A stretch of DNA of 64,000 nucleotides, from positions 36,332,001 through 36,396,000 of the forward strand of contig OZ024746.1 in the NCBI GenBank assembly GCA_964016885.1, read 5' to 3'. A model generated the notes under the pieces. The model made no database searches, was not told the origin of the DNA, and saw only the letters and a list, made by a program, of their open reading frames with translations. Position numbers and translations under genes: made by a program. This DNA comes from Eledone cirrhosa (lineage: Eukaryota). This document shows, piece after piece, positions 35-46,621 of the stretch (position 1 is the first letter of the stretch; each line of letters begins with the position of its first letter).

Positions 35-891
35 AATTCATTTAATTTATTGATTTATTGATATTTTATTTGAGTGACCCGAATCTTCCTGGTCGTTCTT
101 TTTCGGCTGTACGCGTGATTTTAGGCATGACCTCTATGTGTTGGTATTTTAACGATAGTTATAGCTCTGATTTATTCAGATTATTGAGCCCTCTGCCACA
201 CATATCGGATAATGTTTATCGTTAATTCGTAAGCTGTTTTTTCCGATTCTCGATTATTCTACTATATTTAGCTCTAGACCTTAGCTATTGACCAGTTAAT
301 TTTATTGATTATTTTTTGTCGATCTTATTGACTGATGAATAGCTCCTGTTTATTTTAACACGTCTGTTGAGCACTCTGATTCGATATGTGATATTTTGTA
401 TCCTTACATGATTTGCACATCACCGACATTTTTCGCTAATGTAGAGGTTATCTCCCTTGCTGGGTACCATGTGCGTTTCTGGCTAAGGGTCTTCTATTCA
501 TTGTCGGACGGAATTCCCGTTGAGAAAGCTCTTCCTCGTCCCCCCTTCTCTAGAAGTCTGATATATTTTTTATGTGGGCTGATAGTGATTGGAATAAGGA
601 ATTGCAGAAACCCAAGAAGCTAGATTTAACTTCCTTCTAGCGGGTCCGGGTGAGTTTTTTACATTCATATAATTTTTTGATTTATTGATATTTTATTTGA
701 GTGACCCGAATCTTCCTGGTCGTTCTTTTTTGGCTGTACGGGTGATTTTAGGCATGACCTCTATGTGTTGGTATTTTAACGATAGTTATAGCTCTGATTT
801 ATCCAAATTATTGAGCCCTCTGCCACACACATCGGATATTGTTTATCGTTAATTCGTAAGCTGTTTTTCCGATCCTCGATTATTCTACTAT
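35..891 (+). repeat. 627-bp-period partial tandem repeat (about 1.4 units) between (TA)n tracts; hammerhead-bearing retrozyme/Penelope-pLTR-like family A
   Basis: Segment 35-268 recurs at about 663-891 (TGAGTGACCC at 71 and 698). Flanked by (TA)n. A diverged partial copy lies at 15034-15296. Confidence 0.85.
516..650 (+). ncRNA. Putative type I hammerhead ribozyme, U3-A8 core variant (family A)
   Basis: CCCG-TTGAGAA-(long stem II, A/GC...GC/A)-GAAA-CCC...GCTAGA/TCTAGC...GGG-TC-CGGG. Stem I is CCCG/CGGG, stem III is ACCC/GGGT, and the GUC triplet ends at 646. Confidence 0.6.
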
Positions 892-1001
892 ATATGTTTG
901 TATATATATATATATATATATATATATATATATATATATATATATATACATATAGGAGAGTATTGAAGTTTGCTTGAAGCATTGTGGAATAATAAGATAT
1001 C

Positions 1002-1206
1002 TTTTCTTTAGGTCGTTTTCGAAGCCTTATCAATGCAGATGGGTAATTCTCCGGTAACAAGATCCGGTGGTGAAGAGAGATATATAAGTGAATGTAGAAT
1101 GGATCTCATTCTACATTCACTTACATCTCTCTCTTCACCACCGGATCTTGTTACCGGAGAATTAACCATCTGCATTGTTGAGGCTTCCAAAACGACGTAA
1201 AGAAAA
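1002..1206. repeat. Near-perfect 205-bp palindrome (about 100-bp arms, 5-nt loop GATCT)
   Basis: 1002-1101 is the reverse complement of 1107-1206 with few mismatches. Lies between TA-rich tracts. Confidence 0.95.
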
Positions 1207-1487
1207 TTTATATTTATATATATACACACACACATATATATATATATATATATAAATGAAAGTTAGAGTTAATAACTCTTACTTAAACCCTGTAATCAGT
1301 AAGCTCAAAGTATAAATACCGAGCATTATAATAATAATATATATGTAGTAAGAAAGACAGTAAATCGTGTGTCTAATATTAATAGGGTTGAAAGACCACA
1401 TTTGTTTGAAATATTTAACCATGAAGCAGACAGAATTGTAAAATAAAATAAAATTATATTATACAAACCGCCTCAATAACAATTATA

Positions 1488-1562
1488 TCTCTCGGACAGA
1501 TTAATCTGTTTCGCCCTGAGTGTGTTTGCAACAGATAATCCATGGGCATCATCAGCGAGAGA
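1488..1562 (-). ncRNA. Type I hammerhead ribozyme, canonical core
   Basis: Minus strand reads TCTCTCG-CTGATGA-T-GCCC(27 nt)GGGC-GAAA-CAGATTAATCTG-TC-CGAGAGA: 7-bp stem I, 4-bp stem II, palindromic stem III, GUC triplet. Confidence 0.92.
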
Positions 1563-1959
1563 ATCTGATTAAATGCGACAAACACCTAGTACCAACGTTC
1601 ACACAGAAAAAATTAATTCATCACCTCGTGTGCCGTAAGTCAAAAGTGGTATGAGTGTATTGGGTAGAAAGAACAGTCCAACTCACGCAAATTAATAAGC
1701 TCACCTCTTGAGGGAGCCGACATATAAATGAAAGTTAGAGTTATTAACTCTTACGGAAACCCTGTAATCAGTAAGCTCAAAGTATAAATACCGAGCATTA
1801 TAATAATAATATATATGTAGTAAGAAAGACAGTAAATCGTGTGTCTAATATTACTAGGGTTGAAAGACCACATTTGTTTGAAATATTTAACCATGAAGCA
1901 GACAGAATGATAAAATAAAATAAAATTATATTATACAAACCGCCTCAATAACAATTATA

Positions 1960-2034
1960 TCTCTCGGAGAGATTAATCTGTTTCGCCCTGAGTGTGTTTG
2001 CAACAGATATTCCATGGGCGTCATCAGCGAGAGA
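1960..2034 (-). ncRNA. Type I hammerhead ribozyme, second unit (G16.2>C substitution)
   Basis: Same fold as 1488-1562, but the triplet is CUC, which breaks the 15.2-16.2 pair. Confidence 0.8.
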
Positions 2035-2971
2035 ATCTGATTAAATGCGACAAACACCTAGTACCAACGTTCAAACAGAAAAATGAATTCATCACCTCGT
2101 GTGCAGTAAGTCAGAAGTGCTATGAGTGTATTGGTTAGAAACAACAGTCCAAGACACGCAACTTAATAAGCTCACCTCTTGAGGTGAGCCGAAATATAAA
2201 TGAAAGTTAGAGTTAATAACTATTACTGAAACCCTGTAATCAGTAAGCTCAAAGTATAAATACCGAGCATTATAATAATAATATATATGTAGTAAGAAAC
2301 ACAGTAAATCGTGTGTCATATATTACTAGGGTTGAAAGACCACATTTGTTTGAAATATTATATATATATATATACCTTCTCACAAGAACACCAAATATTT
2401 TCGAAAATAAATTTTTTTATCATGTCATTTTGCGTTTTAGCATTTTTAGCGTTTTTTTCATATCCTTATACAAAAAGATATTAATTTCCATATATAAATG
2501 TATTTATATATATATACCGATGAAGTGAGAAAGAGTGAGAAAGAAAGAGGCTTCTGTGAATAAATATTAGTGACATATTCTTGCCATTCATCTCCAGAAG
2601 TTCCAGTTATCAGCATCGACTTCACGGAGAATATATTATCTCTTGGTACAATGAACATGTATTATTGTCCAAGGCTCGATATCGACACTCGTATTACGAT
2701 GGTAATCGATAGAAGTAAACTGCACTAAAGAACATTTGTGTGAAATGAAACATTCATTTAAAGAGTGTTTCTGACATACCATTTTACAGTGAATCTACGT
2801 GAGAATTACTTTAAAAAGACACGCGACTAGAATTTACAACCTTTTTCTATAAGTCTATTTAATTGATCAAATTGTTGGGATGTTGATTCGGAAAAATGGT
2901 GAGGTATTTTATTTATATTTGTTCGTATATTTTATATATATACAGGAAAAGCTTTCATTATTTAATCTTCA

Positions 2972-44306: not shown

Positions 44307-44476
44307 ATAATTGTTTCTACTTTTGGCACAATGCCAGCAATTACCCAGTGCATTACTGGTACTTTATTGTATCGACCCCGTAAGGATGGAAGGCAATGTT
44401 AACCACGGCGTGATTTGAACTCAGATCATAAAGGAAGGTAACTCTACCCTTACTCTACCGATACTGTCTATCCACT
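44307..44476 (-). mobile_element. tRNA-derived Meta-domain SINE
   Basis: Reverse complement of the consensus with an internal deletion. Confidence 0.88.
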
Positions 44477-44741
44477 ATATAATTGATATCAATGAGGTGC
44501 GAGTTCATCTTTAACATGTTTTTATTTTCGTTGTATTGTTGTTACTATGAGCTATAATTTATCGATGTATCGATAGCTCTTCATCTCTTCATTGAGAGCT
44601 TTGTGTCAGCCTCAGAAGATTGATTTCGAAAGATGCTACTTGCTGTTGCAAGTAGGATTTTACTCATACATATATTTAACTCATTTTACTCATACATATA
44701 TATGTATATATACATATATATACATATATATGTATGAGAAT

Positions 44742-44801
44742 ATCCCGTTAAGGGTGAAAGCAGCTATTCTTTGCTTAAACTTTAATCTGTTATTTTAATA
44801 A
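44742..44801 (+). repeat. Family E 3'-terminal fragment
   Basis: ATCCCGTTAAGGGTGAAAGCAGC...TGCTTAAACTTTAATCTGTTATTTTAATAAA. Confidence 0.85.
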
Positions 44802-45140
44802 AGAAATGTATATATATATATATATATATATATATATATATATATATATATACACATGTATATATACACATGTATATATATATATATATATATATATATA
44901 TATATATATATATATATATATATATATATACACATGTATATATACACATGTATATATATATATATATATATATATATATATATATATATATATATATATA
45001 TATATATATATACACTCTCCTGAGCGTGAATTTAATAAACATTTATTGTACTGCCTCTCTGTTCTGTCCCTGTCCAATTTTACATTATATATATATATAT
45101 ATATATATATATATATATATATATATATATATATATATAT

Positions 45141-45330
45141 AACGAAGGAAATGTGGTAAGGTACCAGGTGGACCATAACGCACCAAAGTACTCAATACTT
45201 AGGGTAGTAGAGTGGGTAATAGGAACGAGTAGGACCCCGACGGCTAATTGTGGACTAAATTAGTCTGTAGTCCAGAATTAGCCGTCGAAACGGCTTGAGC
45301 TCAGCTGTCGATGTCCTACTCGTTACTATA
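45141..45330. mobile_element. Miniature fold-back derivative of family C pLTR in (TA)n
   Basis: 45141-45260 is the reverse complement of the family C 3' end (7655-7795 with a deletion). 45268-45330 is the sense 3' half of the hammerhead. Confidence 0.8.
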
Positions 45331-46429
45331 TATATATATATATATATATATATATATATATATATATATATATATATATGTGTATGTGTGTGTGTGTGTG
45401 TAAGGGGGGGGGGGGGGGGTGTACGTGTGTGTATGTATATATATATATACATATATATGTATATATATATACGCATATATATGTGTGTGTGTGTATATAC
45501 TTATAGTTATATACACACTTGCGTGAGAACATACGCACGCACAACCATATTTTTAATGGATAGGCATACAGAGAGATAGAGAATGGGTGAGAAAGGTAGA
45601 GAGAGTTATGTTGAGATATGAACTGAAATACGATCGAAATAATAACATTAACAAGTGTAAGCTGTACCTATGTAATGTTATTTAGCTATTTCTGATAACA
45701 TCAACACTGTGGCTTCAGAACCTATCTAAACATTTCACTATTATATCTATGTTATAACATGATTAACACCTCATAATTTCTCTCTCTCACTCTCTCTCGT
45801 TCTCTTTCTCTCTTTTTTTCTCACTCTCTCTTTGCTTGTATACATATTGTATATACAGAACACATCTACCATATTCCAGGACAGCCTCACGATGTTCAGG
45901 TGATAAGGCATCTTAAATATATCACGTTATTCCATCTAAAATTAATGTTGCCACCAAAACACAAAATATCCTTTAACTGTTGCTGAGTTATCAGCACTAT
46001 CACGTGACCTGAACCAGCCGCTTTAGACCTGTGAAAGCGTGGCCACCCCACTACAATTCTCCGTTTGGCGCTTGACATGAAACAGCTGCTATGAGGTGAC
46101 GTCTCATTCTACATTATCACAATAATGCTATCTTCTTTCAATTCTAGTGCAACCTATATATATATATTAGAGTTAAAACAGAAAACAAAAATAAAAAACA
46201 AAAAAAAAACTTATTTGCATAGGTAAGTATATATTACCTGTATGTTTTGTGAAGGTACGTATACTTTCTCGTACGTATATTTGATTGTATATGTTAGGGC
46301 ATATATTTGTTATATATTCTGGTACATATGCTTTTGGTTATGTGTATACGAGAGTTTTGCGTCTGTGTGAGTATGCGGGTTCGTACGTATGTTGGGTGTG
46401 TGTATATGTGTACTTCATGTTTTGGTTGA

Positions 46430-46621
46430 CGTCGTCTCCGAACATTTGCCAGGGAACGTTTCCACGAACCAAAGTATCGTCTTCCTGTCTTCCTCCGGTT
46501 GCAACATTTTTTGAAATACCCACTTCTGCATCTACAGATTGACTTTGTTAGTTTCAGAAGATCCCGTTAAGGGTGAAAGCAGCGATTCTTTACTTAAACT
46601 TTAATCTGTTATTTTAATAAA
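46430..46621 (+). repeat. Family E copy; hammerhead-like fold at 46534-46609
   Basis: ACAGATTGA-CTTTGTT-AGTTT-CAGAAGA-TCCC-GTTAA-GGGT-GAAA-...-TT-AAACT-TTAATCTGT. Confidence 0.8.

Follow-up and report, generated by a model that had tools for sequence, protein, structure and literature searches.

Hammerhead-bearing repeat families in (TA)n tracts of Eledone cirrhosa share a bulged hairpin near their insertion ends

Previous studies indicate that Penelope-like elements (PLEs) carry hammerhead ribozymes, with many families per genome, (TA)n targeting and tailed insertions, and that they may mobilise retrozymes (PMC4209133, PMC3088659, PMC8557442, PMC7229834, 10.64898/2026.07.22.740005). The Hydra clade of C-terminal endonuclease-positive (EN+) PLEs, with its DKT, CxCX5C, CxxC, CxH and RWK features, includes an octopus family that carries a hammerhead and inserts into (TA)n (Craig et al. 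2021, PMC8557442). Metazoan non-long-terminal-repeat (non-LTR) retrozymes are AT-rich, non-coding tandem units with one type I hammerhead each, dispersed as monomers to multimers, and they co-exist with PLEs as the proposed mobiliser (PMC7229834; 10.64898/2026.07.22.740005); in the literature covered, the mobilisation of animal retrozymes by PLE proteins from circular templates is proposed without demonstration. Here we describe a 64,000-nucleotide stretch of the Eledone cirrhosa genome (GCA_964016885.1, contig OZ024746.1, positions 36,332,001 to 36,396,000; hereafter the window) with five hammerhead-bearing repeat families, A to E. C and E represent the 3' ends of two PLEs that belong to the Hydra clade by their protein motifs, and the hammerhead units of A, B and D were likely copied in trans by way of a common hairpin, reverse transcription starting 5-20 nt before it at cut (TA)n; we give this reading, drawn from sequence comparison, a probability of roughly 0.7.

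The window lies in a 3.0-Gb animal genome that is AT-rich and rich in (TA)n. An initial annotation, made from the letters of the window, had described five unrelated families with units of 627 bp (A), 472 bp (B) and 669 bp (D), and self-comparison and family mapping, by which the families were placed, bore out their number, span and unit lengths. All five are genome-wide repeats according to genome searches (A was also found in contigs of four runs aligned to it), with 1,800-4,117 first-look candidates per family, figures that are not copy numbers. We sampled the best 30 loci each for A, B, C, D, E and the subfamilies A2 and A3, excluding 12 overlapping duplicate loci from most counts, as well as 100 evenly spaced 10-kb stretches of the genome (~1 Mb; the four largest contigs supplied 80 of them) and 28 targeted ones. 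Cross-BLAST of the consensuses limited inter-family homology to A/A2 and short AT-rich words; since a hairpin motif is common to all five families, "unrelated" is true for long sequence only. The units of A, B and D measure 470-670 nt, compared with 170-400 in the invertebrates studied before (PMC7229834) and up to 972 in Li et al. (10.64898/2026.07.22.740005).

C and E are organised as one open reading frame (ORF), with the reverse transcriptase (RT) followed by a C-terminal GIY-YIG domain. The two proteins are 43-51% identical and show, in broken copies, DKT, YRDDG, CxCX5C, CxxC, CxH and RWK-like motifs; of 48 homologous proteins, 670-811 aa long, one is named GIY-YIG. The motifs place C and E among the Hydra-clade PLEs, such as Hydra-1_Obim and Hydra-2_Amil, with which they also share a hammerhead near the 3' end, (TA)n targets, an inverted 5'-truncated arm and a tail (PMC8557442). 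The Neptune clade, our first guess, was displaced because CxCX5C, DKT and RWK fit Hydra. Penelope-type coding sequence lies within 1.5 kb at 21 of 30 C loci and 14 of 30 E loci, as against 4/30 for A, 5/30 for A2, 4/30 for A3, 1/30 for B, 0/30 for D and 17 of 100 random 10-kb stretches. E had been taken for a non-autonomous, non-LTR retrozyme; we rejected this assignment because PLE coding stands upstream at those 14 loci, ~0.9 kb from the repeat, so that E is the 3' end of a second PLE family. The two Penelope remnants noted earlier at 17110-18070 and 55040-55800 are both real and belong to the Hydra clade by motifs. The former is part of an older C-type copy (17122-18640, plus strand), in which a broken RT C-terminus and GIY-YIG coding run continuously into the element's own 3' untranslated region (UTR). 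The latter (plus strand) is the weaker one: here the N-terminal part of another Hydra-type PLE ORF survives in decayed form, with an RWK-like motif and a tblastn E-value of ~1e-7 to the C and E proteins. Further Hydra-type GIY-YIG and RT frames, often nested, were seen ~10 kb before the window (L328:32-619) and at L312, L322, L324 and L329.

The units of A, B and D are closed and non-coding and are joined head to tail in partial tandems, with one type I hammerhead per unit, and the D tandems reach ~9 units. Judged by sequence they are retrozyme-like, being non-coding, tandem, dispersed and high in copy number. They are set apart from published retrozymes by their fixed internal ends, two arms, (TA)n targets and PLE-shared hairpin, and A differs further in its long stem II and U3-A8 core. 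Long homology to a pseudo-long-terminal repeat (pLTR) is absent from A, B and D but present in 24 of 57 Xenopus families (10.64898/2026.07.22.740005), and circles and expression are shown for published retrozymes (PMC7229834; 10.64898/2026.07.22.740005). A 615-bp subfamily of A (A4, 76% identical to A) forms very young, one-armed arrays of 7-19 listed units that end at a fixed site; these lie at ~13.09, 36.02, 36.13, 44.27 and 49.83 Mb of G000:C1 (loci L362-L369) and offer the best material for activity tests.

The (TA)n targeting proposed in the initial annotation holds: of 79 complete insertions of A, B and D, 78 are bordered by TA-like sequence on one or both sides and 50 on both, against a background of 7.9%. 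Copies end at fixed points, or run on into the next unit or a tail. In B, C, D and E there are two such end points, sites 1 and 2, 60-110 nt apart, and the insertions are often two-armed and back to back (B 19/29 loci, D 19/23, E 12/30, C 8/30; A 2/28, A2 0/29, A3 0/29). Most two-armed B and D insertions have site 1 at one end and site 2 at the other, so that the use of both sites accounts for back-to-back arms, one of which bears a 60-110-nt tail in B, C, D and E. In its own sequence, the element continues past each site as an AU-rich, TA-like patch, and one E copy (L197) passes site 2 and its hairpin into the next ATG, as a pLTR ahead of the next ORF. In the window, the A insertion (36-893, plus strand) consists of one 627-bp unit and 232 bp more, one-armed and flanked by (TA)n runs, and the B insertion (1250-2359, minus strand) of 2.4 units of 472 bp in one arm ending at site 2. 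The two-armed C insertion (5716-7794) has a left arm to site 1 and a right arm with a ~80-nt tail to site 2, around a C-terminal GIY-YIG coding remnant at ~6520-6905. In the two-armed D insertion (20911-22710), built of 669-bp non-coding units, the left arm reaches site 2 and the right arm site 1, and the E copy at 4905-5191 (plus strand) is a 5'-truncated 3' UTR of the second Hydra-clade PLE, ending at site 1.

This pattern of ends fits the partial-tandem, inverted and tailed pattern of PLEs (PMC8557442), as well as the two start sites and two-strand priming of the anole Poseidon PLE PAc (Frangieh et al. 2024, PMC11167929). PAc in vitro is similar in that both strands are cut in AT-rich DNA and that its two internal starts have the spacing of the genomic tail. 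However, PAc belongs to another clade and starts inside an AC-rich stem loop not homologous to its target, whereas the ends here lie in target-like AU-rich patches just before a hairpin; among the templates tested in that study there was no non-autonomous one (PMC11167929).

In all five families a hairpin lies 5-20 nt past a fixed end, consisting of NCUC, an inner stem, a 3' bulge of one or two bases (mostly UU or UC) and GAGN. It follows site 1 in 25 of 32 continuing copies of B, 12/13 of C, 53/75 of D and 14/15 of E, and site 2 in 15/17 of A, 7/9 of A2, at least 6/7 of A3, 8/13 of B and 14/17 of D; one E copy (running into the next ORF) and two C copies, the latter by eye, also have it after site 2. 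Behind random points the motif occurs at a rate of 0.4%. The outer pair covaries among G-C, A-U and U-A, and the inner stem of hairpin 2 covaries across A, A2 and A3 around an insert of 66-83 nt. In A, hairpin 1 (GCUC-stem-UU-GAGC) is located at 164-189 on the plus strand, with a second copy at 791-816, and hairpin 2 at 271-372 (plus strand), starting 8 nt past the fixed 3' end and enclosing an 82-nt structured insert (fold z -5.0). In B, on the minus strand, hairpin 1 occurs at 1303-1324, 1775-1796 and 2247-2268, ~20 nt past site 1, and hairpin 2 at 1699-1717, 8 nt past site 2. Hairpin 1 of C (ACUC-stem-UU-GAGU) stands 8 nt past site 1 at 7722-7745 (plus strand) and again at 45190-45213 (minus strand). 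The D hairpins lie 11 nt past their sites: hairpin 1 at 21646-21687 on the minus strand and also at 20977-21018, hairpin 2 at 21558-21575 on the minus strand and at 22160-22177 on the plus strand.

The A clade retains hairpin 1 ~95 nt before its end; among A and A2 copies none was observed to stop at that point, in keeping with the single arm of the clade. In A4 the 3' end lies 8 nt before hairpin 2 at five of six loci, the sixth ending in a gap. Outside the five families, 5 of the 9 multi-locus groups (two of which may be a single family) have the hairpin at their first end and one has it elsewhere, and among published Hydra consensuses we recognised it by eye in 3 of 6 (Hydra-2_Amil, Hydra-2_Ajap and, twice, at the start of Hydra-1_Ajap); it is not clear in the other three. 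In the accessible text of PMC8557442 we found no mention of a hairpin at both ends. It is likely, on these sequence grounds, that the NCUC-stem-UY-GAGN hairpin positions internal target-primed reverse transcription at (TA)n. In pairs of short and long interspersed nuclear elements (SINEs and LINEs), a non-coding RNA borrows the RT through a common 3' stem-loop; compared with these, the structure here lies beyond the copied end and is present twice.

A type I hammerhead had been claimed for each family, and as motifs the five predicted self-cutting hammerheads are confirmed: the core boxes (C3-G8 or U3-A8, G5, A6, A9, G12-A14, A15.1-U16.1, H17) are complete in all of them, with U3-A8 in A and C and canonical cores in B and D, while E deviates at position 4, where 41 of 41 copies have A (U4A) and the other core positions are conserved. 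The A hammerhead (516-650, plus strand) pairs 516-519 with 647-650 in stem I, has its U3-A8 core at 520-526, ~80 nt upstream of the GAAA box at 606-609, with a long stem II, and a predicted cut after 646; the three-way junction is the minimum-energy fold of 511-655. The B hammerhead (1488-1560, minus strand) contains CUGAUGA, an extra nucleotide after A9, G10.1-C11.1, a palindromic stem III and a 7-bp stem I. In C (7605-7701, plus strand) a U3-A8 core is combined with G10.1-C11.1 and a long stem II, with a predicted cut after 7696. The D hammerhead (21309-21387, minus strand; second copy 22350-22433 on the plus strand) has CUGANGA, A·A at 10.1/11.1 and a palindromic stem III, and that of E (5119-5169, plus strand) has a CAGAAGA core, U·U at 10.1/11.1, a 3-bp stem II and a 5-bp stem I. 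Damaged hammerheads were found in B at 1960-2032 (stem III), in D at 22350-22433 (stem I), in E at 13799-13848 (stem II) and in C at 5730-5826 and 18536-18629 (GAAA box).

Several other readings of A were rejected. A nearer CNGAYAG word had looked like a core that lacks G8, in a four-way junction or a non-circularly permuted motif; it lies inside stem II and gave way to the true U3-A8 core 80 nt upstream; likewise, a non-circularly permuted hammerhead (SGC, CSG or GCS order; PMC10085705) becomes the ordinary C-G-S order once a long stem II is allowed. CTGATGA at ~331 belongs to the insert of hairpin 2 and is not a core. A plant-type LTR retrozyme (type III hammerhead in the LTRs, primer-binding site and polypurine tract, 4-bp target-site duplication) does not fit, for the topology is type I and the 232-bp repeat is a partial tandem unit with variable 5' ends. 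The CNGAYAGT word in stem II (569-578) has been kept in A, A2, A3 and the 615-bp subfamily alike and perhaps makes a tertiary contact. In addition, a downstream word of the A clade (703-708) pairs with the 3' strand of stem I (647-651) and changes along with it in A, A2 and A3; once transcribed, it makes the hammerhead fold 4-7 kcal/mol less favourable by computation. Such a word may allow cleavage during transcription and protect the monomer afterwards, the ribozyme being switched off post-transcriptionally.

The hammerheads of B and the D clade resemble the minimal hammerheads of PLEs in the extra nucleotide after A9, G10.1-C11.1 and the palindromic stem III, whereas A, C and E differ from them in having a real stem III (Cervera and de la Pena 2014, PMC4209133). 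The U3-A8 core also occurs in the Cercyon elements of Schistosoma (PMC4209133), and the majority of the Hydra magnipapillata families listed in file S2 of PMC8557442 have U·U at 10.1/11.1; both are published natural variants (PMC4209133, PMC3088659, PMC8557442 file S2). The Hydra cores of that file are all CUGANGA, unlike C with U3-A8 and E with U4A. The view that only B would be found by a strict search is roughly right, but B needs the extra nucleotide after A9, and D is also canonical CUGANGA, with A·A at 10.1/11.1. The proposal of a largely non-canonical system goes too far: B, D and most other families of the 1-Mb sample have CUGANGA, and the variants are already in print.

Core positions are conserved beyond the flanks. 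At ten core positions, 18 of 2,458 cells differ from the family majority (0.7%), against 2,535 of 65,157 (3.9%) in non-CpG flanks; none of the 70 core columns has a shared minor allele (0), as against 196 of 1,920 other columns, and the excess is significant on its own in 6 of 7 sets. Core position 7 varies freely in A and C. For covariation in the A clade, 36 copies were used, 12 from each of three locus sets with 36, 25 and 29 pattern matches; 93.9% of their cells are paired, compared with 22-44% in slid controls. In stems I and II, pairs change from C-G by way of U-G to U-A, and the 24 doubly changed cells, which stem from few events, were matched by 0 of 500 shuffles. In the D clade, two relatives at 67-69% identity show by eye altered but still paired stems I-III, intact CUGAUGA and GAAA, and the canonical G10.1-C11.1. 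Stem covariation thus stood for the A clade and, by eye, for the D clade; the C stems are present with no compensatory change found. Looking for a diverged E subfamily whose 5' half is intact, we obtained a single match, together with one truncated relative that keeps A at core position 4. Since cores and stems are kept across subfamilies ~30% apart, selection on the fold is required, and from this conservation we infer that the hammerheads are under selection in the source lineages.

One descriptor found 110 motifs in 45 of the 100 sampled 10-kb stretches, compared with 3, 4, 1 and 6 in shuffles and 0 and 2 with decoy cores; mismatched 3-8 pairs gave 3 (C3·A8) and 2 (U3·G8) matches. Chance is thereby excluded at the genome level. 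In the window a relaxed descriptor found 2 hammerheads against a shuffle mean of 0.23, and a second descriptor 3; those of A and C were detected with family-specific patterns only. The 110 motifs form 29 clusters, 15 with at least two members and most with canonical cores. Scaled up, this amounts to ~3 x 10^5 motifs in the genome, or ~100 per Mb, an estimate that is rough because 17 matches come from arrays in three stretches; it exceeds the thousands reported in PMC4209133 and the 120,000 of axolotl, and many hammerhead families per genome are common to both this genome and that study. In whole-genome patterns, the E-type core gave 21,233 forward matches against 2,999 for the control (reverse counts being multiply counted, forward ones were used), the A clade 4,215 against 70 and B 220 against 0; D gave 12 matches in 8 of the 100 stretches. 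Copy numbers here are in the tens of thousands, unlike those of the Hydra-clade PLEs of PMC8557442. L181-L280 hold at least 12 more hammerhead families in multiple copies, some of them with U3-A8, and a 310-bp array (L231, L236). L270 is filled over 10 kb by a ~277-bp AT-rich satellite that resembles E over 47 bp and has no convincing hammerhead.

These features suggest a common route of insertion. The GIY-YIG domain would cut both strands of (TA)n, and the fixed ends would be internal start sites, as in vitro for another PLE (PMC11167929). Use of both sites would give back-to-back arms, and the A clade, which ends at the second hairpin only, would be almost always one-armed, as it is. The hammerheads probably cut unit-length RNA out of read-through transcripts; we lean slightly towards a ribozyme-made RNA circle as the template, which would otherwise be an uncut multimer. 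More tentatively, and a little short of an even chance, the hairpin could be the start signal of Hydra-clade RTs, present twice per RNA so as to set both ends of a double-primed insertion, and copied by many otherwise unrelated hammerhead circles for rolling-circle writing into (TA)n, with some 300,000 ribozymes in this genome as the outcome and the loss of a site producing the one-armed A clade. The initial annotation had attributed the mobilisation of the whole system to Penelope proteins; trans-mobilisation of A, B and D remains the likely reading of their sequences, but C and E are PLE ends themselves.

A number of observations weigh against this reading or parts of it. The hairpin rule is post hoc and was drawn by eye from the five families; the hairpin was not found in 3 of the 9 other multi-locus groups and lay off the end in one more, and an antisense control matched in 5 of 11 groups. 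The slowing that U4A may bring to a hammerhead would apply to E. Neither Pfam nor PDB returned an RT or GIY-YIG match for the proteins of C and E, so the clade assignment rests on motifs. The minimum-energy monomers of B, C, D and E lack the full hammerhead fold, the Rfam hammerhead models gave 0 matches at gathering score at 8 loci, the core excess in C alone is not significant (p 0.25), and no compensatory change was detected in the stems of B or E. As for the circle, 5' ends fall within -8 to +30 of the cut in only 1/29 A2, 2/29 A3, 2/47 B and 0/41 D copies, none within 2 nt; same-locus units are nearest neighbours in only 66 of 145 segments; and no A-to-G editing bias was found (113, against 214 T-to-C). 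Hammerhead mutants of PAc inserted normally, uncut RNA being the main template (PMC11167929).

Some facts about the template can be read either way. An excess of A 5' ends near the cut (16/30) coincides with the query start and is probably a selection bias. One A4 copy (L369:60-130) begins exactly at the predicted cut and is joined without a TA spacer to a site-1 end of family C, possibly a template jump by one enzyme. The units of five young A4 arrays are identical within and between arrays, while the sixth locus (L369) has eight private changes shared by its units; the identity could result from a circle, but also from polishing of the assembly or from a source array that is itself homogeneous. 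Among the older families, units of one locus are separated by about half the median pair distance. A Penelope machinery that copies the uncut linear read-through of a tandem source locus, with no circle and with hammerheads that are passengers or act elsewhere, is a serious though rather doubtful alternative. It would agree with the Poseidon PLE, which starts internally at two sites in vitro and for which cleavage is dispensable (PMC11167929), with the 8 of 9 Xenopus dimers uncleaved in vitro (10.64898/2026.07.22.740005), with copies that read through the predicted cut site and with the identity of the A4 arrays, which a homogeneous source array explains. It is harder to reconcile with cores and stems conserved across subfamilies ~30% apart, with private changes carried by all units of L369, and with arrays of 13-19 listed units at several dispersed loci that have a fixed-site end wherever ends could be read.

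The complete head-to-tail units without an ORF, and the PLE coding near A, B and D at or below background, make it unlikely that these families are pLTRs of PLEs whose coding was missed, or satellites grown from pLTRs by local unequal crossover. E also appeared non-coding until the upstream DNA was examined, the top loci were selected for covering the unit, and local amplification from PLE termini has been proposed (Li et al. 2026, 10.64898/2026.07.22.740005); such amplification, however, would not give every dispersed array its own fixed 3' end in (TA)n. Somewhat less likely still, the non-canonical motifs of A, C and E could be dead or chance look-alikes, with B and D the only ribozymes: A, C and E score with no Rfam hammerhead model, and E combines U4A with a 3-bp stem II and no covariation found, but U3 goes with A8 (the mismatched pairs above being nearly absent), A covaries, and U4A is fixed in E with the rest of the core conserved and its forward matches far above the control. 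That a LINE mobilises A, B and D is very improbable. RTE-like and L1-like copies are present in the window, with a long non-LTR-like ORF at 35678-38203, but self-comparison shows no 3' tail in common with the window LINEs, the hairpin is common to Hydra PLEs, and two-armed, tailed and internally primed ends are hallmarks of PLEs (PMC8557442, PMC11167929).

In the openly available text that was searched, we found no fixed U4A family, shared hairpin, two-fixed-end retrozyme insertions or such abundance; as far as these searches reach, they are possibly new. A hairpin common to autonomous Hydra PLEs and non-coding units names a candidate cis signal, by which mobilisation becomes a simple in vitro question, and points to a possible determinant of the two start sites from which the PLE "tail" results. 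As a short tag on an RNA, a structure that makes an RT write circles into TA repeats could also serve as a useful tool. The ~100 hammerheads per Mb missed by Rfam are relevant to the repeat annotation of such genomes; the word "ribozyme" is absent from the main text of a 2026 octopus repeat annotation (PMC13282606). In the window itself, the 150 listed of 206 weak Rfam matches include no hammerhead and only microsatellite-driven miRNA noise.

Smaller copies of the families are scattered through the window. An A2 copy at 15012-15289 (plus strand, ~70% identical to A) is 5'-truncated and keeps the 3' half of the hammerhead only. Two short two-armed C remnants lie between (TA)n runs, a very short one at 14873-14971 and one with a tail at 45141-45326. 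E is represented by an older copy with a damaged stem II (13795-14051, minus strand) and, on the plus strand, by a tail end to site 2 (17046-17091), a fragment (44737-44802) and a copy at 46445-46624 with its hammerhead at 46552-46601.

Other repeats occupy much of the remaining window. A nearly intact non-LTR retrotransposon at 35678-39103 (minus strand) has open frames of 841 and 299 aa and, by eye, the look of an RT and a C-terminal restriction-like nuclease; fragments of it lie at 26973-28247 and 33772-35507, and rearranged copies nearby. A decayed GC-rich LINE at 28700-33750 shows endonuclease- and RT-like frames (L1/Tx1-like by eye), and coding remnants of a transposon-like protein are present at 62241-63198. 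A ~190-bp dispersed repeat with box-like internal words occurs at 43682-43868 and about 13 other places (window positions 2972, 5438, 9522, 14133, 23955, 44307, 51336, 56552, 57915, 58838, 61668 and 61867); we take it to resemble a tRNA-derived SINE, although ARAGORN detected no tRNA in it. At 41430-42310, within TA, ~100-bp terminal inverted repeats accompany a mariner-like transposase remnant, and at 42845-43590 a frame like a helicase C-terminus is followed by a CTAG end, Helitron-like by eye. Short inverted-repeat elements, either fold-backs or similar to miniature inverted-repeat transposable elements, adjoin TA runs at 994-1214, 15376-15500 and 42348-42496.

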